This document shows, in pieces, positions 1,141 to 28,290 of a DNA stretch of 31,757 nt. The stretch covers positions 1 through 31,757 of the forward strand of contig JAWODC010000035.1 in assembly GCA_046483495.1 (NCBI GenBank). The letters run 5' to 3'. Each line of letters opens with the position of its first letter. The stretch's first letter is position 1. The notes under the pieces are model-generated. The model saw only the letters and a program-made list of their open reading frames with translations. It was not told the DNA's origin and made no database searches. The stretch is from Desulfobacterales bacterium (GTDB lineage: Bacteria; Desulfobacterota; Desulfobacteria; Desulfobacterales; UBA5616). Both the position numbers and the translations under genes were made by a program.

Positions 1141-1161
1141 GTATTGTGCAGTTTCCGGATG

Positions 1162-1254
1162 TGTGCTTCCCTACGGCAGTATTATCTGCATCAGGTTCAA
1201 GGGATCGGAGCATGACTCCATCTCAGCCCGGACCAAAGGGCTCTCCCAGCAATT
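1162..1254 (-). ncRNA. TPP (THI-box) riboswitch aptamer
   Basis: Minus strand reads GCTGGGAGAGCCC...GGGCTGAGA...ATCCCTTGAACCTGATGCAGATAATACTGCCGTAGGGAAGC, containing the canonical CTGAGA, GAACCTGAT, TAAT and CGTAGGGAA cores. It sits upstream of thiSG. Confidence 0.95.
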
Positions 1255-1261
1255 CGAATTC

Positions 1262-13850: not shown

Positions 13851-14948
13851 TCAGGGAAGATTCGGATTCTGACAGCACGTCATGCCGTTGCCGCTGTCGT
13901 TGCCGATGGAGAGAATGCATTCCAGGCAGTCGACGCAGTCGACGATCTGATCTTCGTTGCCGCTGAACGATTTTCGAATCAACCCGGGATCCGCCACAAG
14001 AGCACGCCCCATGGCCACGAGATCCGCCGCGCCTGAAGCAATGATTTCCTCCGCCCGAGCCAGGTTCTTGATATTTCCGACGCATATCACGGGTACATCG
14101 ACCCCCTTTTTTATTTCGGCGGCCATTTGGACGAATACCCCTTTGTTCATTGCCTCCAATCCCTTCTGGTTCATGCCTCCGGATACATGGATAAAATCCG
14201 CACCCTTTTGTGCCATCCAGCGGCTGAAAATTCCGGATTCATCGAGGCCGTAGCCGCCTTCGGCAAATTCGTCCGCGCCGATGCGCACCCCGACAATGTT
14301 GTCAGGACCCACCGCTCGACGTGTTTTTTCGATGATGTTCAAGGCAAACCGGGCTCTGTTTTCCAGAGATCCCCCGTACTCGTCCGTCCGCCGGTTGCTC
14401 AACGGGGAGAGAAACTGGTCGATCAGGTACCCGTGGGCGCAATGGATCTCGACCAAATCGGCTCCAGCTTCAAAGGCGCGTTCAGCACTTCCGGCAAAAG
14501 CTTCTTCCAGTATGTCAATGTCTTCTCGGGTGAGTGCAACGGCGGTGCCGCTGCCGTCCGGGTAGGGAACGGCGGAAGGGGCGACAAGCGGCCGTCCTCC
14601 GGTTCGTTCGGTATTGGTGGATACCCCGCAATGGTAAAGTTGAATGCCGGCGGCTGCCCCTTCGGCTTTGATTGCGTCAAAGAGATTTTTTAATCCGGAA
14701 ATGGCGTTGTCATTGTCTATCCGGGTGTTGCCCATCCAGCCCGTTCCATCGGGAGAGACGGCGGTGGCACCGACAATCACCAGCCCGGGACCTCCGGCGG
14801 CGATTTCCTTGTAGAATTTTACCTGGCGGTCGGTCACCATTCCATCGTTGCTCGAGTAACCGGTTACGAAGGGCGGAAAAACAATGCGATTTGAAAGGGC
14901 GAGTCCGCGTATGGCCGTATTTCGGTTGAGCAGGGCATATCGATTCAC
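13851..14948 (-). CDS. NADH:flavin oxidoreductase (Old Yellow Enzyme family) with a C-terminal Cys cluster
   Basis: NRIVFPP, IQLYHCG, EIHCAHGYLIDQFLSP..NRRTDEYGGSLENR, GRALVADP and CVDCLEC...CCQNP. GTG start at 14948 with an AGAGGG RBS. Confidence 0.88.
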   Translation of the reverse strand: MNRYALLNRNTAIRGLALSNRIVFPPFVTGYSSNDGMVTDRQVKFYKEIAAGGPGLVIVGATAVSPDGTGWMGNTRIDNDNAISGLKNLFDAIKAEGAAAGIQLYHCGVSTNTERTGGRPLVAPSAVPYPDGSGTAVALTREDIDILEEAFAGSAERAFEAGADLVEIHCAHGYLIDQFLSPLSNRRTDEYGGSLENRARFALNIIEKTRRAVGPDNIVGVRIGADEFAEGGYGLDESGIFSRWMAQKGADFIHVSGGMNQKGLEAMNKGVFVQMAAEIKKGVDVPVICVGNIKNLARAEEIIASGAADLVAMGRALVADPGLIRKSFSGNEDQIVDCVDCLECILSIGNDSGNGMTCCQNPNLP

Positions 14949-15027
14949 TGGTTCAATCCCTCTCTTTGGTTGATTGGGCGAATTAAACAATTGCGGGAAT
15001 AAAAATATTGACACCAAAAACCTGATT

Positions 15028-15056
15028 ATGATAAAAGGCGGCAAGCTTCATGTCAA
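15028..15056 (-). promoter_or_regulatory. Putative sigma70 promoter for the OYE gene and the leftward block
   Basis: Minus strand reads TTGACA-17 nt-TATCAT. Confidence 0.55.
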
Positions 15057-15080
15057 TATCAATATAGCAACAGGCAAATC

Positions 15081-15155
15081 ATGGCATATCAAACCGGCAG
15101 ACTCTATTTTTATTGGTACTATTTTTTTAGGACCGGTCTGCCTGTGGTTCGCTGA
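15081..15155 (+). CDS. Putative attenuator leader peptide rich in aromatic residues (MAYQTGRLYFYWYYFFRTGLPVVR)
   Basis: 24-codon ORF with 8 consecutive Tyr/Phe/Trp codons, directly upstream of tandem terminators and the aro operon. Confidence 0.8.
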   Translation: MAYQTGRLYFYWYYFFRTGLPVVR

Positions 15156-15173
15156 ATAAACCTAATAAAAAGC

Positions 15174-15249
15174 AAAAGCCGTGGGTAGATCGAAAGCCCG
15201 CGGCTTTTTTTGTTTTTTAAGGCCGCGGAATCCTCTTCCCGGCCTTTTT
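15174..15249 (+). terminator. Tandem attenuator terminators of the aro leader
   Basis: T1: AAAAGCCGTGGG/CCCGCGGCTTTT with a U-tract (15174-15211). T2: AAGGCCG(C)GGAA/TTCCCGGCCTT with a U-tract (15219-15249). Confidence 0.8.
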
Positions 15250-15272: not shown

Positions 15273-16073
15273 ATGACGATTTTGGGCAAAAAGATTCGAA
15301 CGGAGCGCATCATCAACCGGAACACCCGTAAAACCATTATTGTTCCTATGGATCACGGCATGTCCGTGGGGCCGATTCCGGGCGTCATCGACATGAAGGA
15401 GGCCATCGACAAAGTATCTGAGGGCGGCGCCAATGCCATCGTGGAGCATAAGGGATTGGTTGAGGAGGGCCACCGGGGTGAAGGCAAAGACATCGGCCTG
15501 ATTATTCATCTATCCGCCTCCACCAACCTTTCCATTTACCCCCACGCAAAGACCCTGGTCTGCAGTGTGGAAGAGGCCATCAAACTGGGTGCAGACGCCG
15601 TGTCCATTCATGTCAACCTCGGAAACGGGCAGGAAAAAGAAATGCTCGGAGACTTCGGAAGGGTCGCTTACGAGGCGAGGACGTGGGGTATGCCCCTTCT
15701 GGCCATGGTGTATCCCAGAGGGGAGAAAATCAAAGATGAATATGATGTGCAAGTAGTAAAGCACGCGGCGCGCGTGGGCAGTGAAATGGGCGCGGATATC
15801 GTAAAAGTGTCGTACACCGGCAGCGCGGAAACGTTTCACGAGGTCGTTCAGGGGTGTTCGGTACCGGTGGTGATCGCCGGCGGGGAAAAAATGGAATCCG
15901 ATCGTGACATTCTGGAAATGGTAAAAGGCAGCATCGATGCCGGTGGGGCGGGGGTTTCCATCGGACGGAATGTCTTCCAGCATGAGGACCCTGCCAGAAT
16001 GGTTCGGGCTATCTCCGCCATCGTTAACGAAGGCAAGGATGTCGGTGAAGCCCTGCTGATATTGAACGATTAA
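15273..16073 (+). CDS. aroA': 2-amino-3,7-dideoxy-D-threo-hept-6-ulosonate (ADH) synthase, DhnA-type class I aldolase
   Basis: [45 protein letters not shown] and GRNVFQ. Adjacent to DHQ synthase II. AGGAGG RBS. Confidence 0.88.
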
Positions 16074-16084
16074 GGAGGGGCGCC

Positions 16085-17077
16085 ATGAGAAAGATCTGGG
16101 TGAGGGTGGATCCATGGGACAAGCAGATCGTAACCACGGCCTTAGAAGGCGGGGCCGACGGCATTATGGTTCCCAAGGGATTTTCCGAAAAAGTAAAACA
16201 ACTGGGACGAATTCAGACGATCGCCGAAGACGGGGACCTGGTTCTGGGAAAAGATGTGATTGCATTTCACATCACAAGCGGCGAGGATGAAGATGAGATC
16301 GCAAAACTGAGCCAAACCCGCACGGTTATCCTCGAAACAGCGGATTGGTCCATTATACCCCTTGAAAATCTCATTGCCAGGGGGGCCGATGTCGTGGCCC
16401 AGGTCGGCAGCCTGAGCGAAGCCCAAACCGCCTTCGGAATTTTGGAGAAGGGCGTCAATCATATTCTGTTCCATACCACCGATCCTTCCGAACTGAAGAC
16501 GGCGCTTGCAGCCCTTCGATCCTCTGCGGACAAGACGCCCCTCCAGGAAGCGGAAATTCTGGAAATAACGGCTGTGGGCATGGGGGATCGGGTATGCGTG
16601 GACACCTGCACATCCATGGCCCCGGGACAAGGCATGCTGGTGGGCAACAGCAGCAGCGGCTTGTTTCTGGTTCATGCCGAAAGCATCGCCAATCCGTATG
16701 TCACCCCACGGCCGTTCCGGGTCAATGCGGGGGCGGTCCACGCCTACACGCGGGTTCCCGAAGGAAAAACCCGGTATTTGTCCGAGCTTTGCGCGGGTGA
16801 TTCGGTATTGATCGTGGATCATGAAGGGAATACGTATCCGTCTATCGTGGGCCGGTTAAAAATAGAAAAGCGGCCCCTGATGCTCGTCCGGGCGGTGGTC
16901 GGCGACATGGAGGCCACCACCATTCTGCAGAATGCCGAAACCATTCGGCTGACCGATCCCGAAGGAAAGGCCGTGTCCGTGGTCAACCTTGCGGCCGGAG
17001 ACAAGGTGCTCGTCGCGGTGGAAAAAAGCGGCCGGCATTTCGGGATGAAAATCGATGAAACGATCACGGAAAAATGA
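16085..17077 (+). CDS. aroB': 3-dehydroquinate synthase II (archaeal-type)
   Basis: DWSIIPLENLIA, GDRVCVDTC, RPFRVNAGAVHAY, ILQNAETIRL and GRHFGMKIDETITEK. Confidence 0.93.
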   Translation: MRKIWVRVDPWDKQIVTTALEGGADGIMVPKGFSEKVKQLGRIQTIAEDGDLVLGKDVIAFHITSGEDEDEIAKLSQTRTVILETADWSIIPLENLIARGADVVAQVGSLSEAQTAFGILEKGVNHILFHTTDPSELKTALAALRSSADKTPLQEAEILEITAVGMGDRVCVDTCTSMAPGQGMLVGNSSSGLFLVHAESIANPYVTPRPFRVNAGAVHAYTRVPEGKTRYLSELCAGDSVLIVDHEGNTYPSIVGRLKIEKRPLMLVRAVVGDMEATTILQNAETIRLTDPEGKAVSVVNLAAGDKVLVAVEKSGRHFGMKIDETITEK

Positions 17078-17089
17078 GGCGCAACCGAT

Positions 17090-18346
17090 ATGATTGAAAT
17101 TCCCCCCATACGGATCGATACCGCCGCCGTGTCGGTGCCCGGATCGAAAAGTTACACCCATCGCATCCTCATCGCCGCCTCTCTTTCCGACGGCCTCTGC
17201 ACGGTGACCGGGGCCTTGAAAAGCGAGGATACGGATCTGACCCAAAACGGGCTGCGCCAAATGGGGGTCATGATCGAAGAAAAGAATGCTTCCGTAAACA
17301 TTCACGGGACCGGCGGACAATTGAAACCGGCCGGTAAGCCTATTTGCCTGGCAAACTCGGGCACTTCCATGAGGCTGTTAACCGGTGTGGCCGCCATCGG
17401 CAGGGGCGAGTATGAGCTGACCGGAACACGGCGGATGAAAGAGCGTCCCATCCAGGATCTGCTCGACGCGTTACGGCTGCTGGGGGTCGATGCCCATTCC
17501 AAAAACGATGACGGGTGCCCCCCCGTTATCGTCCGCGGCGGCGATGTCATGGGGGGAAGGACACGCGTTCGATGCCTTCTCAGCAGTCAATTTCTGTCGG
17601 CGTTGCTTCTCATCGCCCCATATACGGCATCGGGCATGACCATCGATGTAACAGAGGGGCCGGTTTCCAGGCCGTATATCGATATGACGGTGGACATCAT
17701 GGGGCAAATGGGGGTCGAAGTCCGGCGGTACGGTTATGACCGGTTCGATGTCGCCGGTGGTCGGATTTATGCATCCGGTGATTATGAGGTGGAACCGGAT
17801 TATTCACAGGCGGGGTATTTCTGGGGCGCCGCCGCCGTTTCCGGCACGGCCGTCAAAGTGATACGGACCACCCGGAATACGCGGCAGGGCGATGTCCGTT
17901 TCCTGGAAGTGCTTCAGAAGATGGGATGCAAGGTGATCGGGGAGCCGGACGGCATCACGGTCATCGGCAGGCCGCTCTCCGGGATCGAAGTGGATATGGC
18001 CGATATGCCCGACATGGTTCCCACATTAGCGGTGGTGGCGGCGTTTGCCTGCGGGGTGACCCGGATTAAAGGTGTGGCCCATTTGAGGGCGAAGGAGAGC
18101 GACCGTATTCACAGCGTGGTGACCGAACTTGAAAAGCTCGGCATCGATGCTCAGGCCCTGGATGATGGGATGCTCATTCAGGGCGGAACCCCCCGCGGCA
18201 CCCGTATCGACACTTACAACGATCACCGAATGGCCATGGCATTTTCACTTGCCGGTCTGATGGTGCCCGGAGTCTTCATAAACGATGAAACCTGCGTCCG
18301 CAAATCCTTTCCCGATTATTGGGAGGTTTTAAAAAAACTCTGCTGA
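17090..18346 (+). CDS. aroA: 3-phosphoshikimate 1-carboxyvinyltransferase (EPSP synthase)
   Basis: PGSKSYTHR, NSGTSMR, SSQFLS, KESDR, DHRMAM and KSFPDYW. Confidence 0.95.
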   Translation: MIEIPPIRIDTAAVSVPGSKSYTHRILIAASLSDGLCTVTGALKSEDTDLTQNGLRQMGVMIEEKNASVNIHGTGGQLKPAGKPICLANSGTSMRLLTGVAAIGRGEYELTGTRRMKERPIQDLLDALRLLGVDAHSKNDDGCPPVIVRGGDVMGGRTRVRCLLSSQFLSALLLIAPYTASGMTIDVTEGPVSRPYIDMTVDIMGQMGVEVRRYGYDRFDVAGGRIYASGDYEVEPDYSQAGYFWGAAAVSGTAVKVIRTTRNTRQGDVRFLEVLQKMGCKVIGEPDGITVIGRPLSGIEVDMADMPDMVPTLAVVAAFACGVTRIKGVAHLRAKESDRIHSVVTELEKLGIDAQALDDGMLIQGGTPRGTRIDTYNDHRMAMAFSLAGLMVPGVFINDETCVRKSFPDYWEVLKKLC

Positions 18347-18450
18347 GTCATGGGAAGACTCATCCGCACCCATGGTGAAGCGATGGAAATCGAGGGCCGT
18401 TTTTCGGCTCCAAGGACATACGCAAAAAAACTAAAACCAAGAGAAACATC

Positions 18451-19539
18451 ATGTCCAGTTCGTTCGGCAGCATATTCAAGGTGACCACTTTCGGAGAATC
18501 CCACAGCCGGGGTGTGGGGGCGGTGGTGGACCATTGCCCGCCGGGGCTCGTTGTAAGTGAGGCGGATATCCAGCGGCAGCTTGACCGGCGGAAACCGGGA
18601 CAGAGCCGGATGACGACACAGCGCGATGAAAAAGATAAGGTGACGGTGCTGTCCGGGATCGAAAACAACCGGACGCTGGGAACACCCATCGCCCTGATGA
18701 TCGCCAATACGGACCACAGGCCGTCGGATTACACCCACCTGCGCCGTGTTCCGAGACCGTCGCACGCGGATTATACGTATCAGGTGAAATACGGCATGCG
18801 ATCCGCCAGCGGCGGCGGCCGCGCAAGTGCGCGTGAAACAGCCGGCCGGGTGGCCGCGGGGGCGGTGGCAGACATTTTTTTAAAAGAAGTTTACGGCATC
18901 GATATCATTGCCTGGGTCAGTGCCGTCGGATCTCTTTCGGCACCACCGGTGGATATGGAGACCATAACGCGAACCGAGGTGGATCGATCGCTGGTGAGAT
19001 GTCCGGATGAAGAAGCCTCCCAAAAAATGGTGGAGGCCGTGGATGCGGTGAAGGCCGCCGGCGATTCCATCGGGGGAATCATCACCTGTATTTGCCGCGG
19101 GGTTCCCGCCGGTTGGGGAGAGCCGGTATTCGACAAGATGGAAGCAAAACTGGCCCATGGCATCATGTCCATCCCCGCCGTCAAAGGCTTCGAAGTCGGA
19201 TCGGGTTTTGCCGGATCCCGAATGACCGGTTCGGCTCACAACGATCGCTTTGTCAAAAAAGGAAACCGTCTCGGCACTGCCACAAATTTCAGCGGCGGAA
19301 TTCAGGGGGGGATTACGAACGGGGAAATGGTCACGTTCAATGTCGCGTTCAAGCCTACGGCCACCATCGGGCTGACTCAGATCAGCGCCGATTTTGACGG
19401 GAATTCCGTTGAAATTGAAGGCAAAGGGCGGCATGATCCGTGTGTACTTCCCCGGGCCGTGCCCATTGTGGAAAGCATGGCCGCGCTGGTCCTTGCGGAT
19501 ATGGCGTTGATTCAACAAACGAGGATGCAAAAAACATGA
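18451..19539 (+). CDS. aroC: Chorismate synthase
   Basis: [37 protein letters not shown] and GRHDPCV. Confidence 0.97.
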
Positions 19540-20291
19540 TCGGCATTATTGGATTTGGACGATTTTCTGCGCTGATGGTCCGGTATCTTAGAGATGAAGT
19601 CGCCATTCGCATATCGACGCGGCGGGACAAACGGGAAGAAATAACATCACTCGGGGCATTGCAGGTTCCCTTCGAAGAAGTATGCCGCCTGCCGGTCGTT
19701 ATTCTGTCGGTACCCATATCGGCGATGGAAGAAACACTGCACCGGATGGCGCCTTTGGCCCGGTCCGACGCACTGGTCATCGACGTGTGCTCCGTAAAAA
19801 CCTACCCGGTCAAATGGATGAGGGAAATACTGCCGGAATCGACGTCACTGCTTGCCACGCATCCCATGTTCGGTCCGGACAGTGCGGCGGATTCCCTGTC
19901 GGGCAGAAAAATCGTGGTGTGCAGGGAGCGCATCGGCCGTGAGCGGTATGGGAAGATCAAGGATTTTCTCACATCAAAGGGACTCATCGTAATGGAGACA
20001 TCGCCGGAAGAACACGACAGGCAGATCGCCGCAAGTTTGTCGCTGACCCACTTTCTCGGCCGCAGCCTTGCGGAATTTGGTGCGGCCCCGCTTGACATCG
20101 ATACGGAAGGTTATAAACGATTATTGCGGATACTGGAAGTGACTCAGCACGATACCTGGGAGTTGTTCCGTGACATGCATGCGTATAATCCGTATGCAAA
20201 AGGTGTCCGATCCGACTTTATGGGGGCGATTGAAAAAATCAATGACCTGCTGGAGGGAAAACGGCCGTTGCCCTTTGAAAAAAACGATTGA
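19536..20291 (+). CDS. tyrA: Prephenate/arogenate dehydrogenase
   Basis: Rossmann motif IGIIGFGRF, plus [15 protein letters not shown] and EEHD. ATGA overlap with the aroC stop. Confidence 0.88.
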
Positions 20292-20316: not shown

Positions 20317-20347
20317 TCGAAAAAAATCGTTACCGGGGAATAATACG

Positions 20348-20446
20348 ATGTTCTGCAACTTATTGAAGACTTCCACAAACAATGCATGGTGGTGGTGTGC
20401 CTGGAGAATACGGCATGCCGACGGACCACTGTACCGATCGCCGTAA
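20348..20446 (+). CDS. trpL: trp operon leader peptide (MFCNLLKTSTNNAWWWCAWRIRHADGPLYRSP)
   Basis: 32-codon ORF containing WWWCAW, upstream of tandem terminators and trpE. Confidence 0.85.
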   Translation: MFCNLLKTSTNNAWWWCAWRIRHADGPLYRSP

Positions 20447-20466
20447 CGTTGATGACATAAAAAACG

Positions 20467-20542
20467 AAAACCGTGGGCAGCCGAAACGCCCGCGGTTTTT
20501 TTTGGAGTAGAGGGCCGCGGGAAAAAACGCGGCCCTTTTTTT
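20467..20542 (+). terminator. Tandem attenuator terminators of the trp leader
   Basis: T1: AAAACCGTGGGC/GCCCGCGGTTTT with T8 (20467-20503). T2: AGGGCCGCG/CGCGGCCCT with T7 (20511-20542). Confidence 0.85.
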
Positions 20543-20574: not shown

Positions 20575-22074
20575 ATGCGGTTACATCAGTTTCCCGATCA
20601 GCAGCGGTTTAAAGCGCTGTCCGCCGACCACAACGTTATACCGGTTTGTGTGGAAATCCTGGCCGATACGGAAACGCCGGTGACCTTGCTGAAAAAGTTT
20701 TACCGCGGCAATGGCGCGGTTTTTCTGTTTGAAAGCGTGGAAGGCGGCGAGCGGTGGGGACGGTACAGCTTCCTGGGGACGTCCGCCCGGTCGGATATCC
20801 GGGTCTATGAGGATGTCGTAGAAATTTCCGGAAACGGGGAGATCCGGCGGATTCCGCACCAGCACGATCCCCTGCCGGTTTTGAGAAGCATCATGTCCGA
20901 ATATGATCCCGCCGAAATCAAAGAGATGCCGAGGTTCTGGGGGGGCATGGTCGGTTACGTGACGTATGAGATGGTTTCGTTTTTCGAGGATATACCCCAT
21001 AAACTGCCGAAAAATTCGCCATTGGCACATTTCATCATTGCCGACGAGCTGATCATTTTCGACAACCTGAAGAATTCGCTTCTGGCGGTTGCCATTGCGT
21101 TTCTGGACGAAAATACATCCCCTGATGCGGCGTACCGGAATGCCGTGCAGCGTGTCGACGGGCTGCTTTCCGTTATGGCAAAACCCGTTTCTTTTGAACC
21201 GGAATATTCAGGGGAGCTCTATCGGCTCGAACCGCGATTGGATCCGGAAGTATACCGGCAATCCGTTTCCAGGGTAAAGGCCTACATTCGCGATGGTGAA
21301 ATTATTCAGGCCGTTGTTTCACAGCCGTTCACCTGCAGCAGTGTTCCGGATCTCTGGATGCTGTACCGGACGCAACGCTACATCAACCCGTCTCCCTACC
21401 TGTTTTTCCTTCACCTTGGGAATACGGCGCTTGTCGGATCGTCACCGGAAACCATGGTCCGTTTGGAAAACCGGGTGGCGACGCTGAGGCCCATTGCCGG
21501 AACGCGTCCCAGGGGGGCAAATGAGCAGGAGGACCGGCATATGGCGAATGAACTGCTGCAGGATGAAAAAGAAAAAGCCGAGCACCTGATGCTCGTGGAC
21601 CTCGGGCGAAATGACCTGGGACGGGTGGCCGTGACAGGGACGGTTCAGGTCACGGATCTGATGTTTGTCGAACGGTATTCCCATGTTATGCACCTGGTAT
21701 CCAATATTACCTGTGATGTCGAAAGCGGGTGCGATGCGTGGGATCTGCTGCGGGCCACGTTTCCGGCGGGAACCCTGTCGGGCGCTCCCAAGGTAAGGGC
21801 TATGGAAATCATCGCTGAAATGGAAGAAACACCGCGGGGGCCGTATGGCGGCGCCGTGGGGTATGTATCATTCAGCGGGAACATGGATCTGGCCATCACG
21901 ATCCGAACCGCCGTCGTGGAAAACGGGCGGCTTACCGTTCGAGCCGGCGGCGGCATCGTGGCCGATTCCGATCCGGAAAAGGAGCGTATGGAAACCGTCA
22001 ACAAGTCCAGGGCGCTGGAAAAGGCGCTTCTGCTCGTGCAACATGCATCGGTGAAAAAGGAGGATCAGCCATGA
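20575..22074 (+). CDS. trpE: Anthranilate synthase component I
   Basis: ADTETPV, LFESVEGGERWGRYSF, NPSPY, GSSPE, PIAGT, EHLMLVDLGRND and FPAGTLSGAPK. ATG 20575 follows an AAGGA RBS. Confidence 0.96.
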   Translation: MRLHQFPDQQRFKALSADHNVIPVCVEILADTETPVTLLKKFYRGNGAVFLFESVEGGERWGRYSFLGTSARSDIRVYEDVVEISGNGEIRRIPHQHDPLPVLRSIMSEYDPAEIKEMPRFWGGMVGYVTYEMVSFFEDIPHKLPKNSPLAHFIIADELIIFDNLKNSLLAVAIAFLDENTSPDAAYRNAVQRVDGLLSVMAKPVSFEPEYSGELYRLEPRLDPEVYRQSVSRVKAYIRDGEIIQAVVSQPFTCSSVPDLWMLYRTQRYINPSPYLFFLHLGNTALVGSSPETMVRLENRVATLRPIAGTRPRGANEQEDRHMANELLQDEKEKAEHLMLVDLGRNDLGRVAVTGTVQVTDLMFVERYSHVMHLVSNITCDVESGCDAWDLLRATFPAGTLSGAPKVRAMEIIAEMEETPRGPYGGAVGYVSFSGNMDLAITIRTAVVENGRLTVRAGGGIVADSDPEKERMETVNKSRALEKALLLVQHASVKKEDQP

Positions 22075-22643
22075 TCGTCGTAATCGACAACTATGATTCG
22101 TTTACGTATAACCTGGTTCAGTACATGGGCCAAATCGGTGCGGACATACAGGTTTTCAGAAACGATACGATTTCCGCTGTAGAGGTCGCGGCGTTGAATC
22201 CGTCCGGCATCGTCATATCCCCGGGCCCGGGAAGGCCCGAATCCGCCGGGATCTCCGTTTCGGTGATCGAATTGCTTTCCGGAAAAATTCCTATTCTGGG
22301 CGTCTGTCTGGGCCATCAGTCCATTGCCTGTGCGTTCGGAGGAAGCATCGTATCGGCGCGCAGCCTGATGCACGGCAAAACGTCCATGATCGACGCCGAT
22401 GGAAAGGCCGTTTACAAGGGGATTACCAGGCCCTTTCAGGCGATGCGCTACCATTCACTGGCCGTAAACGAAAATAATCTACCGGAGTGCTTCGATATCA
22501 GTGCGCGTTCCGAAGACGGTGAAATCATGGGCATACGCCATAAGTCGCATCCCACGGAAGGTATACAGTTTCACCCGGAATCCATTATGACGCCGCTCGG
22601 CAAACGCATTCTGAGAAATTTCTTAACCATGTCGCAGGTCTGA
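22071..22643 (+). CDS. trpG: Anthranilate synthase component II (glutamine amidotransferase)
   Basis: IDNYDSFTYNL, SPGPG, GVCLGHQ and QFHPES. Confidence 0.95.
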   Translation: MIVVIDNYDSFTYNLVQYMGQIGADIQVFRNDTISAVEVAALNPSGIVISPGPGRPESAGISVSVIELLSGKIPILGVCLGHQSIACAFGGSIVSARSLMHGKTSMIDADGKAVYKGITRPFQAMRYHSLAVNENNLPECFDISARSEDGEIMGIRHKSHPTEGIQFHPESIMTPLGKRILRNFLTMSQV

Positions 22644-22683
22644 ACAGACGTTACCGAAAACGATTTATTCAAGGAGAAAAAAA

Positions 22684-23703
22684 ATGGCATTTCGAGAGAG
22701 TCTTTCTAAAATTGTGAACAGAACCGATTTAAGCGAAGCGGAGATGGGTGAGATGCTGTCCGATATCTTCAACGGGAAGGCGACCGACGCCCAGATCGGT
22801 GCTATGATGGGGGCCCTGGCGACGAAAGGCGAAACCTTCGAAGAGCTCGCCGGTGCGGCGCGGGTTATGAGACGAAAAGCCCTGCGCATTCAGTCTTCGG
22901 CCGAGACCGTTCTGGACACCTGCGGCACCGGAGGGGACGGCGCCGGAACGTTTAACATTTCCACGACGACCGCTTTTGTGGTGGCCGGTTGCGGCGTTTG
23001 CACGGCCAAGCACGGAAATCGCTCCATATCCAGCCGGTGCGGCAGTGCCGATTTGTTGGAGGCGTTGGGGGTCAAGATCGATACGGACCCCGAAATCGTA
23101 GAGGAGGCGCTGCAGGAAATCGGCATCGGTTTCATGTTCGCACCGGTTTACCACGGGGCGATGCGGTTTGCCGCAACGGCCAGGAAAGAGGTGGGGCTGC
23201 GGTCCATTTTCAATATGCTGGGGCCATTGACCAATCCGGCTGCGGCCAATTGCCAGCTGGTGGGGGTGTATGCGCCGGAGCTCACCGAAATGTTTGCCGC
23301 CGCATTGAACCTGCTGGGAGTGAAGCGGGCTTTTGTGGTTCACGGCCACGACGGGCTCGATGAAATTTCCGTATGCGCCCCAACCCGGGTTTCGGAATTA
23401 AAAGACGGCCTCGTTCGTACATACGATATCTCGCCGGAACAATTTTTTGACAGGCAGGCGGACCCGGAAGAACTCGTCGGGGGGGATCCGGAGGTAAACG
23501 CCCAAATCACCCGCAGTATTTTGCAGGGAGAAAAAGGCGCCCGCCGGGACGTGGTCGTCCTCAATGCAGCGGCTGCGCTGGTGGCTGCCGGCAAGGCCCA
23601 AAGCACCAAAAGCGGTATTGCCCTGGCTGAAGCCGCGATCGACGGCGGGGGTGCAATGGAGAAGTTAAATGCATTGATTCAGTATACCCGGGAAAACGGA
23701 TAA
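22684..23703 (+). CDS. trpD: Anthranilate phosphoribosyltransferase
   Basis: DTCGTGGDG, NISTT, KHGNRS, GSAD and GLDE. Confidence 0.96.
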   Translation: MAFRESLSKIVNRTDLSEAEMGEMLSDIFNGKATDAQIGAMMGALATKGETFEELAGAARVMRRKALRIQSSAETVLDTCGTGGDGAGTFNISTTTAFVVAGCGVCTAKHGNRSISSRCGSADLLEALGVKIDTDPEIVEEALQEIGIGFMFAPVYHGAMRFAATARKEVGLRSIFNMLGPLTNPAAANCQLVGVYAPELTEMFAAALNLLGVKRAFVVHGHDGLDEISVCAPTRVSELKDGLVRTYDISPEQFFDRQADPEELVGGDPEVNAQITRSILQGEKGARRDVVVLNAAAALVAAGKAQSTKSGIALAEAAIDGGGAMEKLNALIQYTRENG

Positions 23704-23708
23704 ACGCC

Positions 23709-24521
23709 ATGACAAAGGATTTTCTGACCACCATCGTGCAGGCGAAGAGGGATCGGGTTGCCGCTGCAAAGAAAAGAATATCCGAAAGCGATCTGTACCA
23801 CAATTTCGGCGGGGGGAGAGTAAAGCGGCCCTTTTTTCACAACCTGTCGGTCCCCGGCGCAGGGGGTCTCAACATTATTGCGGAAATCAAGCGGGCATCC
23901 CCCTCAAAGGGACCTATTCGAGAGGACCTGGATCCGGCCCGGTTTGCAAGCTCCTACGAAAAAGGCGGTGCTGCGGCGGTATCCGTGTTGACGGACGAGC
24001 GGTTTTTCAACGGCAGCCTGGCGGATTTGCGGCGTGCACGTGCGGCGACAACCCTTCCCGTGCTCCGTAAGGACTTCATTATTTCTTCCTACCAGATCCA
24101 TGAGGCGTATGCCGCCGGCGCGGATGCCGTTTTGCTGATCGCTCGAATCCTCGACCGGGAAATGCTCAAAGACTTTATGGATATCTGCAGGGATATCGAT
24201 ATGGATACACTGGTTGAAATTCACCGGGAAAAAGACATCGAAACGGCCGCGCTTGCCGGTGCCGAACTGATCGGGATCAACAACCGTGATCTGAGCTCGT
24301 TTAAGACGGATATCCAAACGGCGTTCCGATTAGCCGCTATGCTGGCCCCCGGTCAGATACCCGTAGCGGCCAGCGGAATACGTTCACGGGAAGATATCGT
24401 ACGCACCAAAAAAGCCGGAATCTTCAATTTTCTCATCGGGGAAAGTCTGGTGCGGGCGGAAAACACAGAAGCATTTTTGAAAAGCCTTTTGGGTGCACAG
24501 GCGGAAAATGGGGCCTTATGA
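23709..24521 (+). CDS. trpC: Indole-3-glycerol-phosphate synthase
   Basis: IIAEIKRASPSKG, SVLTD, LRKDF and GINNRDL. Confidence 0.96.
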   Translation: MTKDFLTTIVQAKRDRVAAAKKRISESDLYHNFGGGRVKRPFFHNLSVPGAGGLNIIAEIKRASPSKGPIREDLDPARFASSYEKGGAAAVSVLTDERFFNGSLADLRRARAATTLPVLRKDFIISSYQIHEAYAAGADAVLLIARILDREMLKDFMDICRDIDMDTLVEIHREKDIETAALAGAELIGINNRDLSSFKTDIQTAFRLAAMLAPGQIPVAASGIRSREDIVRTKKAGIFNFLIGESLVRAENTEAFLKSLLGAQAENGAL

Positions 24522-25183
24522 GTACAGAAGCAGCTCCCCAGGTGAAAATTTGCGGCATTACCCGGATCGAGGATGCTCTTTCATGTGTCCGATGCGGAGC
24601 GGATGCGCTGGGATTCGTTTTCTTCCCGAAAAGTCCGAGATGCGTATCCGTCGAAACCACCAAAGCCATCATCAGCCGCCTGCCGAAAACGGTAACGACG
24701 GTCGGCGTGTTCGTCGACGCCTCGTTTAACCACATAAAGCGCAGCGTCGAAACATGCGGGCTTGACGCCGTACAGCTGCACGGGCGGGAATCACCGGAAA
24801 TGGTCCGCCGGCTGGGCGCTGAAAACCTGATCGTCATCAAAACGCTTTTTTCGAAGCGGCCCCCGTATATCGACGAGATGCTCGACTTCGACGCCTCGGC
24901 GGTTCTGGCGGAATGCGGAAGAGGTGACTTACCGGGGGGAAACGCGCTTGCCTGGAACTGGTCCGAAGCAGGCAGGCTCAACCGTCACCATCCCCTTATC
25001 CTGGCCGGCGGGCTGACCCCCGAAAATGTCCGGCAGGCCGTTCGTGATGCCCAGCCGGATGCCGTGGACGTCAGTTCGGGCGTTGAACTGCTGCCGGGGC
25101 GAAAAAACCCAGAAAAGATAAAGGCATTTGTCGAACGGGTCAGAGATGTGCGAGTCCTTTCGCCGAAGAAAATATTCGGATAA
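24518..25183 (+). CDS. trpF: Phosphoribosylanthranilate isomerase
   Basis: VKICGIT, SPR, VQLHG, LAGGLTPENV and VDVSSGVE. Confidence 0.95.
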   Translation: MSTEAAPQVKICGITRIEDALSCVRCGADALGFVFFPKSPRCVSVETTKAIISRLPKTVTTVGVFVDASFNHIKRSVETCGLDAVQLHGRESPEMVRRLGAENLIVIKTLFSKRPPYIDEMLDFDASAVLAECGRGDLPGGNALAWNWSEAGRLNRHHPLILAGGLTPENVRQAVRDAQPDAVDVSSGVELLPGRKNPEKIKAFVERVRDVRVLSPKKIFG

Positions 25184-25219: not shown

Positions 25220-25981
25220 TCACCGAAGACTTCTGATGAAGGCCCCCACGGCATCGACACCCTCGCGATCGAAAACCCGGATGGCTTCCGATCCGACGAC
25301 GGCGATATCCGCCTTGCCGCGCAAAAAATCGACTTCGGTTTTATCTTTTACACCGAATCCGACTGCAAGCGGAAGCCGGGTATTTCTTCGGCATGCGTTA
25401 AGGTAGTCGGCAAGCTCCTCTGAAAAAGCCGTTTTTTCGCCGGTCACCCCTTTTCGGGCAACGCAGTAAATGAATCCATCGGCCCGGCTGTCGATGAACC
25501 CCATTCGTTTTTCCGGTGTTGTCGGCGAGAAAATGTAAATAGGGGCCAATTGGTGGTTTTTCATAGCGGTCTGGTATTCATCGGCTTCCTCGGGTGGAAG
25601 GTCCGGAACGATCGCCCCTTTTACACCGGCCGCGGCCAACCCGGAAACGAACCGGTCCACGCCGGACGCAAAAAGAATATTGTAGTACGTCATGATCAAA
25701 AAAGGGATATCGAACAGCTCCGTCACCTTTCGGGCAAACGCCATGCAGGCCGACACCCGGGTGCCGTTGGCAAGCGCTTTCTGATTGGCGTTGAGAATCA
25801 CCGGCCCGTCCGCAATCGGTTCCGAAAACGGAATCTGCAGCTCCATGAGATCGACACCGGCATTGACCATGGCCGAAACAACGGCGAGTGAATCATCGAA
25901 GGACGGATATCCCATCACGATATGGGTCATGAGCAGAATGTCTTTTTCTTCCAATCTTTTCCGGATATCGTTATCCAGCAT
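25220..25981 (-). CDS. trpA: Tryptophan synthase alpha chain
   Basis: ELQIPFSEPIADGPVI, MTYYN, PDLPPEE, GVTG, VGFG and VVGS. Confidence 0.95.
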   Translation of the reverse strand: MLDNDIRKRLEEKDILLMTHIVMGYPSFDDSLAVVSAMVNAGVDLMELQIPFSEPIADGPVILNANQKALANGTRVSACMAFARKVTELFDIPFLIMTYYNILFASGVDRFVSGLAAAGVKGAIVPDLPPEEADEYQTAMKNHQLAPIYIFSPTTPEKRMGFIDSRADGFIYCVARKGVTGEKTAFSEELADYLNACRRNTRLPLAVGFGVKDKTEVDFLRGKADIAVVGSEAIRVFDREGVDAVGAFIRSLR

Positions 25982-27200
25982 GATAGTCCTCCGCCTTTTT
26001 CATGATGAACCGTTTCCAGCCGGGATCGTCAAATGCATCGGCAATGGTAAAAATGTCTTTGTCTCCCCTTCCGGACTGATTGATGACAACGACTTCATCG
26101 GGGCCGAGTTGCGGCGCTTCCTTGAAGGCCTGGACAAACGCGTGGGCGGATTCCAGAGCCGGAATCAGGCCCTCTTTTCTCACGGTCAAGGCAAGGGCGT
26201 CCACCACCTCCCGGTCCGTTGCCGCCTCGAACCGGACACGCCCGGTTTCCTTCAGTTGGGACAAGATCGGCGAAACCCCCACGTAATCCAATCCGGCGGC
26301 GATGCTGTGGGTCTCCTTCATCTGGCCGTCTTCATCCTGGAGAAAATAGGACTTGTAGCCCTGGGCCACGCCGATGCCGCCGTCTTTGGATTTCAGCCGG
26401 GAAGCATGCGATCCCGTATCGAGACCCTTTCCGCCGGCTTCCACCCCTACCAGCTCGACCGGATCGGTCATGAACCCCTGGAAAATCCCCATGGCATTGG
26501 AGCCGCCGCCCACACAGGCATAAACCCGCGCCGGCAGTTTGTTTTCGGTATTCAGGATTTGCTCCCTTGCTTCTTTTCCGATGATGGACTGAAAATAGGA
26601 CACCATCTCGGGGAAGGGATGGGGGCCGCTGGCCGTTCCCAGCACATAATGGGTGGCGGCCATGTTTCTTGCCCAATCCCGAAAGGCTTCGTTGATGGCG
26701 TCTTTTAAAATGCGGGTGCCGTCCGTAACCGGTATCACCTCGGCTCCCAGCCGTTCCATCCAGAACACGTTGGGCCGCTGCCGAACGACATCCGTTTCAC
26801 CCATGTAAATGGTGCAGGCAAAACCGAACTTGGCCGCCATGGTTGCACAGGCCACGCCATGCTGGCCGGCCCCTGTTTCGGCGATCACCCTTTTTTTGCC
26901 CATACGTTGAACCAAAAGGCCCTGTCCCATGACATTGTTGGCCTTGTGCGCTCCGGTGTGGTTCAGATCTTCACGTTTGATGTAGATTTTGGCGCCGCCG
27001 AAATGCCGGGTTAAATTCTCGGCATAGGTCAGGGGTGTCGGACGGCATGAATAGGTCGACATGATGGATTCATAGGATGACCAGAAATGGGGATCATGTT
27101 TTGCGGCTGTAAACGCGGCTTCCAGTTCTTCGAACGTCGCTGTGAGTATTTCGGGGATGAATGCGCCGCCGAATCGGCCGTAGTAGCCTCTAGTTTTCAT
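25971..27200 (-). CDS. trpB: Tryptophan synthase beta chain (TrpB1 type)
   Basis: KREDLNHTGAHK (PLP lysine), AETGAGQHG, CVGGGSNA, AGLDY, PALESAHA and SGRGDKD. Confidence 0.96.
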   Translation of the reverse strand: MKTRGYYGRFGGAFIPEILTATFEELEAAFTAAKHDPHFWSSYESIMSTYSCRPTPLTYAENLTRHFGGAKIYIKREDLNHTGAHKANNVMGQGLLVQRMGKKRVIAETGAGQHGVACATMAAKFGFACTIYMGETDVVRQRPNVFWMERLGAEVIPVTDGTRILKDAINEAFRDWARNMAATHYVLGTASGPHPFPEMVSYFQSIIGKEAREQILNTENKLPARVYACVGGGSNAMGIFQGFMTDPVELVGVEAGGKGLDTGSHASRLKSKDGGIGVAQGYKSYFLQDEDGQMKETHSIAAGLDYVGVSPILSQLKETGRVRFEAATDREVVDALALTVRKEGLIPALESAHAFVQAFKEAPQLGPDEVVVINQSGRGDKDIFTIADAFDDPGWKRFIMKKAEDYHAG

Positions 27201-27924
27201 CTTGAATTCCTCCGAGTTTCTGGGAGAAGACGAACCGGTCCGTACGGCAGAAAAGGTCCGAGTAGACGCCGTTTGGGACGTCGGGAAAATCGATGAACCG
27301 GTTCAGCGCCAAAACGGGCGTTTCCTTCGATACGCCCAGCAGTCTGGCCCTTGCGGCATTGGGATATGCGATTCTGAAATGCTGTCTTCCACCGGTCGGC
27401 TTTAGATAGAAATAATCCGATACGATCTGTGAAAGGGACCGGCCGGTGAGGTCGAATTTGTCAATGCCGGAAAACAGTCCGGGATGGAGATAAATATCTT
27501 CCAGCAGGACGGGTTCATTGTCGACCCGGCTGACCCGTGGAAAAAAATAGGCGTTTTGATCGAAGAAAGGATTGGCGGCATCCTGATGCACCGTAATCAG
27601 GCGGATACGATTCACGATGTGCGATACGACGGATATGCCCTTTTTCTGAAAGGAGGAGAGGGTTCCAGCCAGACTGAACAGATCCACTTCGCGATGCTCG
27701 TTCTGCACAAACGTGCCGGCGCCCCGCTTTCTACGAAGCACGCCTTTGCGGACCAATACTTCCGTGGCCTGCCGGACCGTTGGCCGGCCGATGTTGTAGT
27801 GTTTTGCCATCTCGTGTTCGGAAGGAAGCCGGGTACCCGGCGGATAGTCGCCATTGATGACTTTTTCGCTGATGATATCGGCCAGTTGTTGATACAGCGG
27901 CAGTGGTGATGTTGTGTTCAGCAT
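27190..27924 (-). CDS. GntR-family (HutC/UTRA subfamily) transcriptional regulator
   Basis: wHTH PLYQQL...LPSEHEMAKHYNIGRPTVRQA...RKRGAGTFV followed by a UTRA-like C-terminal domain. Its stop overlaps the trpB start. An alternative GTG start lies at 27957. Confidence 0.9.
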   Translation of the reverse strand: MLNTTSPLPLYQQLADIISEKVINGDYPPGTRLPSEHEMAKHYNIGRPTVRQATEVLVRKGVLRRKRGAGTFVQNEHREVDLFSLAGTLSSFQKKGISVVSHIVNRIRLITVHQDAANPFFDQNAYFFPRVSRVDNEPVLLEDIYLHPGLFSGIDKFDLTGRSLSQIVSDYFYLKPTGGRQHFRIAYPNAARARLLGVSKETPVLALNRFIDFPDVPNGVYSDLFCRTDRFVFSQKLGGIQDEN

Positions 27925-28002
27925 CGTTATATTCCTGTAAAGCAAGGTTGCGGGCACGGCCGATCTCCCTGTCGTGGATCCAGCCGCCCCTTTTTACAGT
28001 TG

Positions 28003-28202: not shown

Positions 28203-28290
28203 GGAGGGATGGCCGAGTGGTTTAAGGCGGCGGTCTTGAAAACCGTTGAGTGTCAAAGCTCCGTGGGTTCGAATCCTACTCCCTCCGCCA
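28203..28290 (+). tRNA. tRNA-Ser (anticodon TGA)
   Basis: Acceptor stem GGAGGGA/TCCCTCC with GCCA end, D-loop AGTGG, anticodon arm GCGGT-CTTGAAA-ACCGT, long variable arm, T-loop GGTTCGAATCC. Confidence 0.97.

Follow-up and report, generated by a model that had tools for sequence, protein, structure and literature searches.

The aromatic amino-acid operon in the window, the whole 31,757-nucleotide stretch of Desulfobacterales DNA that was analysed, is very probably controlled by a ribosome-mediated transcription attenuator. On the evidence of sequence comparison and modelled RNA folding, this element would sense the charging of Tyr and Phe tRNAs, and perhaps of Trp tRNA. An earlier note on the same DNA had proposed a leader-peptide attenuator of the common aromatic pathway, and conservation, frame-keeping, two-sided changes and geometry lend that proposal strong support. 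Leader-peptide attenuation is a mechanism forty years old. The case described here very probably follows that classical mechanism, but its layout is a variant in which the aromatic codons are mixed and a second terminator is linked to the first. It points to a likely form of control for entry into the archaeal-type shikimate pathway in sulfate-reducing bacteria. The elements of the leader and the genes downstream are collected in Table 1. NCBIfam models bear out the gene order aroA'-aroB'-aroA-aroC-tyrA given in the earlier note, the last being a prephenate dehydrogenase-like gene that scores under the curated cut-offs and is here called tyrA-like. The only match to the DAHP-synthase family in the same genome is a KDO8P synthase.

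Table 1. Features of the probably attenuated region and their basis (two-sided changes count sequences, not events)
Feature	Position	Strand	Basis
Likely sigma-70-type promoter	15008..15037	+	TTGACA 15008-15013; weak -10 region ~15032-15037
Leader ORF	15081..15155	+	24 codons; ORF listing; conserved in relatives
Control codons 9-16, YFYWYYFF	15105..15128	+	translated ORF
Segment 1 (protector or pause helix 1:2)	15096..15102	+	84.9% of cells paired; 4/7 pairs with two-sided change
Segment 2, partner of 1 or 3 (antiterminator 2:3)	15136..15149	+	91.5% paired; 5/9 pairs with two-sided change
Segments 3 and 4, terminator-like hairpin 1 and U tract	15177..15218	+	90.4% paired; 5/9 with two-sided change
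Helix 4:5, predicted second antiterminator	15198-205 with 15221-28	+	90.8% paired; 3/9 two-sided
Segments 5 and 6, terminator-like hairpin 2 and U tract	15219..15249	+	96.6% paired; 6/10 with two-sided change
Genes under predicted control: aroA' (ADH synthase), aroB' (DHQ synthase II), aroA, aroC, tyrA-like	15273..20291	+	NCBIfam
Paralogous Trp leader before trpE, built on the same hairpin pair	20348..20541	+	hairpin-pair profile, E 3e-11
trpE-trpG-trpD-trpC-trpF	20575..25183	+	NCBIfam; continues the same gene run

The leader RNA can be divided into six segments, which pair as 1:2, 3:4 and 5:6 in the off set and as 2:3 and 4:5 in the on set. When amino acids are plentiful, the ribosome would reach the stop codon and cover segment 2; helices 3:4 and 5:6 would then form and transcription would end at one of the two terminators. 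Without translation, 1:2 would form and the outcome would likewise be termination. A ribosome stalled at codons 9-15 would cover segment 1 only, in which case the emerging segment 3 would be captured by segment 2, the freed segment 4 would pair with segment 5, and neither terminator would form. Since segment 4 can pair with either 3 or 5, freeing it would break the second terminator, and one stall is predicted to disarm both. The earlier model contained the switch of terminator 1 by helix 2:3, and this part is supported, but it left the passage of terminator 2 unexplained; helix 4:5, absent from its description, would supply the explanation. A relay of two terminators of this kind would be a compact design for tight control. 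A second attenuator of like build before trpE would add control by Trp only.

The leader ORF is unannotated and encodes the 24-residue peptide MAYQTGRLYFYWYYFFRTGLPVVR, with the aromatic run of four Tyr, three Phe and one Trp codons that had been read from the sequence initially. Among 3476 regions upstream of long ORFs in the same genome, eight aromatic codons in 10 are unique to the aroA' leader; seven in 10 are found in three regions and six in 32. Aromatic-rich ORFs were sought upstream of aroA' orthologues, as the earlier note had envisaged, in two sets that may overlap and were counted apart: 30 loci from a genome set including the window's own, and the 80 best among 474 named matches, most of which carry a Desulfobacterales label. 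A leader was scored as a short ORF with at least six aromatic codons in 10, at loci with at least 450 nt upstream; one locus of the genome set and four of the named set were too short and were left out. Leaders were found at 72 of 76 named loci from the best 80 matches (shuffles, 24/1520; reverse strand, 6/76) and at 28 of 29 loci of the genome set (shuffles, 13/580; reverse strand, 3/29). The four named misses comprise two loci with clear leaders when all frames are read by eye (L037, L062), one with a five-codon run and one with none. No leader is seen within 420 nt upstream at L067, and L096 is doubtful. Among cultured species, Desulfonema magnum has the leader (L048). A phylum-wide sample yielded leaders at 20 of 26 further loci, including 18 of 24 from other orders, and two of the six misses have less than 170 nt upstream. 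The locus L124 has a longer ORF, containing an FYFYDW run, that begins just past the upstream gene and extends into the terminator before aroA'.

Several features of the leader ORF are indirect signs of its translation, read from start codons and frame-keeping. Its ribosome-binding site is weak (AGG at 15072-74). Among 68 distinct leaders, which as kin are not independent, a start codon lies 4-11 codons ahead of the run in all (ATG 54, GTG 8, TTG 6), and an SD-like 4-mer is present in 58. Between segments 1 and 2, aromatic codons make up 515 of 648 codons in frame, compared with 180/645 and 167/587 (28%) in the other frames. For 58 of 70 leaders, the spacing from segment 1 to segment 2 belongs to a single class modulo 3, with peaks at 38, 41, 44 and 47, and the spacing from segment 2 to segment 3, past the stop codon, falls into one class in only 35 of 70; these spacing and frame counts leave out 11 loci whose patterns were unmatched and treat related leaders as if independent. 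An overlapping 61-codon ORF (14974-15159) was set aside as a leader candidate, as it lacks the aromatic run. The ribosome-binding region of the leader, 15070-15078, is complementary to segment 2 at eight of nine positions as read from the sequence, and segment 2 might block re-initiation on the leader by this route.

These observations bear on whether the ORF is incidental, with control exerted instead at the level of translation or by a protein or small molecule, for example through hairpin 2 near the aroA' ribosome-binding site or through the U-rich loop as a protein site. The run is indeed very U-rich, and letter-shuffled runs still yield 37% aromatic codons. Such control is very improbable in view of the frame-keeping and start codons described above. 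Moreover, the AGGAGG of aroA' (15259-64) lies outside hairpin 2, and in several relatives aroA' starts 200-400 nt further downstream. No T-box or known riboswitch model of Rfam matched at the leader, and leader codons vary with the downstream pathway, as described below.

The pairing evidence favors the attenuator. The fold of the leader region has a z-score of -5.4 against 200 shuffles. In an alignment of 59 leaders, comprising the window and 58 of 72 candidates, pairing reaches 91.3% in the off set, where 15 of 26 pairs show two-sided change, and 91.1% in the on set, where 8 of 18 do; such changes count sequences rather than events; slid-register controls are 33-56% paired. A second alignment, of 52 hairpin pairs, gave 95.2% pairing for helix 4:5, with three of eight pairs changed on both sides. 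The pairing of 15137-15149 with 15177-15189 over 13 bp, claimed initially, holds at each of the 13 positions, five of which are G-U pairs. The resulting antiterminator 2:3 is exclusive with the terminator and overlaps the 3' part of the ORF. Helix 1:2, which the earlier note had not listed, joins 15096-102 to 15136-42. The two U-tailed hairpins reported after the ORF are likewise evident from sequence and pairing, so that predicted terminators, each a hairpin with a U run, lie between the leader and the first gene. The stem of hairpin 1 pairs 15177-85 with 15197-205, and that of hairpin 2 pairs 15219-28 with 15237-46 with one mismatch, each followed by its U run. Duplex energies in the window are -17.0 (1:2), -21.7 (2:3), -23.8 (3:4), -19.2 (4:5) and -17.5 (5:6) kcal/mol.

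Segment 2 also encodes the conserved GLP of the leader peptide, which raises the question of whether the peptide itself acts, either in the ribosome tunnel as in TnaC-like arrest or in trans. A tail of the form (S/T)GLPxVR is conserved 8-9 codons past the run in 59 of 75 leaders, as such an action would have it. However, the bases of segment 2, which encodes this tail, are constrained by pairing, and leaders with a different RNA have a different or shortened peptide tail. An acting peptide is the least probable of the readings considered here.

Folding with a ribosome on the leader gave a divided result: prefix and greedy folds switch, whereas the equilibrium fold of the full leader is never on. 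At equilibrium the off state prevails whatever the ribosome position (-52.3 kcal/mol, against -44.7 for the on state), and E. coli trpL, folded as a control, also stays off. Because this known attenuator fails too, equilibrium folding with a ribosome mask was rejected as a test, and the equilibrium off state is weak counter-evidence. The present leader shares with trpL a four-segment core as well as this behavior, but trpL has a single terminator and its Trp codons number two. When prefixes of increasing length were folded, 2:3 was favored with the ribosome at codons 7-15, and with the ribosome at codon 16 or beyond 3:4 wins after segment 4 emerges. A greedy co-transcriptional fold of the window, a crude method, gave 2:3 and 4:5 with no terminators for a stalled ribosome and two terminators for a ribosome at the stop codon; by the same method, full switching was seen in 49/72, 23/28 and 10/20 leaders of three sets. 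In silico, a ribosome on the control codons thus frees segment 2 and a ribosome at the stop codon covers it.

The role of the second hairpin deserves separate consideration. Only terminator 1 might be switched, with hairpin 2 serving as a constant brake or as a processing or stability hairpin and 4:5 arising as a by-product. Segments 3 and 5 are near copies, and 4:5 could in part simply result from duplication. With 2:3 fixed, 5:6 is more stable than 4:5 at equilibrium by about 2 kcal/mol in the window, and hairpin 1 stands alone in several lineages (L113-115, L117-119, L122). This arrangement is nevertheless unlikely. Helix 4:5 is 91-95% paired and carries two-sided changes, and a constant second terminator would cap induction. 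In addition, five loci of one well-supported clade in a quick tree (L125-127, L129, L130) have a hairpin 1 without a U run and combine a perfect 2:3 of 11-12 bp with a 4:5 of 8 bp ahead of a sole terminator. As their first hairpin lacks the U run, this sole terminator is reachable only through 4:5. In these five loci 5:6 is again better than 4:5, by 2-6 kcal/mol, and the greedy fold switches one of the five. Because 5:6 is the more stable helix, a relay that switches both terminators must be kinetic.

The layouts seen among relatives recall a known design. The enterobacterial hisL leader has six segments in a chain of alternative helices, three formed in the off state and two in the on state, and only its last hairpin is a terminator. 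The present leaders resemble hisL in this chain and in the numbers of helices, but in most members both 3:4 and 5:6 carry U runs, with one family his-like. Pattern-based labels assigned 61 leaders two terminators, 17 the first only, 10 a first hairpin without U run and five none; these labels contain visible mislabels, and the variants relied on here are those read by eye.

The identity of the sensed amino acids was addressed by an alignment-free codon count, a count by fixed alignment columns having been dropped because the run aligns poorly. Among 75 distinct runs, a set that includes one false ORF (L037), Phe is present in all 75, Tyr in 74 and Trp in 57. The joint sensing of tRNA-Tyr, tRNA-Phe and tRNA-Trp claimed in the earlier note is therefore well supported for Tyr and Phe, and weaker for Trp. 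An attenuator responsive to Tyr and Phe alone, or chiefly to one of the two, with the Trp codon retained for RNA pairing, has somewhat less than an even chance of being correct. Trp is missing from 18 of the 75 runs and single in 50, and in a quick tree the leaders without Trp are spread across several branches. Trp mostly falls in an NGG slot that can also pair in the RNA (TGG 56, GGG 9, CGG 8, AGG 1), with an ACC partner downstream for 62 of 80 TGG. The same genome also has a separate Trp leader. Furthermore, the Phe-Tyr-Phe leader aroR of Corynebacterium glutamicum responds to limitation of Phe and not of Tyr, according to the passage of PMC11802643 that summarises Neshat et al. 2014. In favor of a role for Trp, TGG makes up three quarters of the slot codons although CGG would pair better, some leaders shift Trp outside the slot or have two, and the Trp codon is mid-run, where a stall gives 2:3.

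The hairpin pair is not confined to aroA'. A covariance model of segments 3-6 was searched in 61 genomes of the order and matched 60, with 1-9 matches each, reverse-strand echoes included. The 88 loci examined comprise those returned by the search and 60 chosen among the listed matches, most of them at sites other than aroA'. Mixed Tyr/Phe/Trp leaders precede aroA' (18 loci) and AroFGH-type DAHP synthase (8). Trp runs precede trpE at 28 of 30 loci by eye, the others being one without upstream DNA and one without Trp, and also occur before trpD (4) and seven of nine DAHP synthases of another type. Phe-rich leaders with the same hairpin pair precede paaK/phenylacetate-CoA ligase (8: L174, L192, L195, L203, L212, L218, L224, L225), importer binding proteins (3: L190, L217, L221) and an ACT protein (1: L219), which suggests a role of these genes in Phe supply. 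Ala-run leaders lie before class I aminotransferase (2: L194, L199), a Leu-rich leader before a leuA-like gene (1: L222) and a Tyr leader before aroA (1: L210). Summed over the last 24 residues, the counts are Y74 F68 W12 before aroA' (18 loci), Y37 F29 W6 before AroFGH-type DAHP synthase (8), W89 before trpE (29 of 30 with a leader) and F60 W0 before paaK (8). Leader codons match the downstream pathway, so the mixed leader tracks the first pathway step, whichever enzyme performs it. As the amino acid sensed can be read from the leader codons, the module could be used to assign genes to pathways, as with the Phe leaders before paaK and the importers and the Ala runs before the aminotransferase.

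A broader reading of these patterns is possible but somewhat doubtful. It would make the leader a three-amino-acid gauge set on a two-terminator relay, in which a single ribosome stalled at a codon for any of the three would open two terminators in series. The module would have spread through the order by copying, with codon changes directing it to Trp, Phe, Tyr, Ala or Leu. The variants with one terminator, with two, and with a first hairpin lacking the U run would then illustrate interconversion of trp-type and his-type attenuators.

Within the genome of the window, control appears to follow one logic in three tiers: mixed codons for the trunk, Trp for trpE, and Phe for a second aroA' together with pheA. 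The Trp leader ORF (20348-20446), which the earlier note did not mention, has 32 codons with a WWWCAW run and lies inside the same gene run; it is kept in all three named loci that reach trpE. Strong scores of the hairpin-pair profile in this genome are confined to the two leaders of the window. On contig C82, a Phe/Gly-rich leader of 29 codons with one terminator (L227, 132-275) precedes the second aroA' copy and a prephenate dehydratase gene, and was missed by that profile. No leader was seen in the genome before paaK, leuA or a third aroA' copy.

Rfam gave nothing at gathering level at the leader; the best weak match, Phe_leader RF01859, scored 27.2 bits against a gathering score of 55, which places the leader outside that family. 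Lopatovskaya 2010 is said to cover deltaproteobacterial attenuators. A full-text literature search, which took in neither Lopatovskaya et al. 2010 nor Vitreschak et al. 2004, returned no description of the leader family, and the main text of PMC2965389 had no match for search terms on such leaders. A motif from Desulfobacteraceae is reported in PMC11109978, and the supplement of that paper may bear on novelty. A mixed aromatic leader is not without precedent, given C. glutamicum aroR-aroF. As presented in PMC11802643, that system too has a leader with mixed aromatic codons, placed ahead of the enzyme that opens the common pathway, and uses ribosome-mediated attenuation, a likeness of function only; the present leader differs in its eight codons with Trp, in preceding ADH synthase instead of DAHP synthase, and in its two linked terminators. 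Shewanella aroF is listed as a Tyr-tRNA attenuator in an entry of PMC2659441. For Desulfobacterium autotrophicum, a possible pheL before pheA is noted in a passage of PMC3082878; the pheL-pheA type shares with the present leader a Phe-codon run and the logic of 1:2, 2:3 and 3:4, but not the mixed codons, the control of the common pathway or the second terminator. In another phylum, uORFC-13-1 before Acholeplasma aroF is similar in being a predicted uORF attenuator before the first shikimate-pathway enzyme, with at least one Phe codon and one terminator, as described in PMC8632094; the survey reported there included a Thermodesulfobacterium genome.

Transcription of the leader likely starts from the promoter listed in Table 1, which a consensus promoter scan of the window did not list. 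Of 73 leaders, 70 have a TTGAC no more than 170 nt ahead of the run, mostly at a distance of 79-107 nt. An 11-of-12 sigma-70 match on the opposite strand (15028-15056), for the divergent flavin oxidoreductase gene (13851-15044, minus strand), overlaps the likely -10 region of the leader promoter. RNA contigs identical to the window come from four runs of three studies (11, 5, 8 and 6 of 30 bins covered) and bear on presence rather than on starts, ends or levels, with no meaning attached to uncovered parts. They cover the leader in three of the four runs at a depth of 2.6-3.6, crossing both hairpins with no end seen. In one run, an insert of 101 nt (20343-20443), flanked by adapter at either end and at a depth of 75, matches the Trp leader ORF; it may be one amplified molecule. 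Elsewhere in the window, trpA and trpB (25220-27957, minus strand) are convergent with trpF and lie behind a GntR-family regulator gene, and a TPP riboswitch (1151-1257, minus strand) and a tRNA gene (28203-28287, plus strand) are present.
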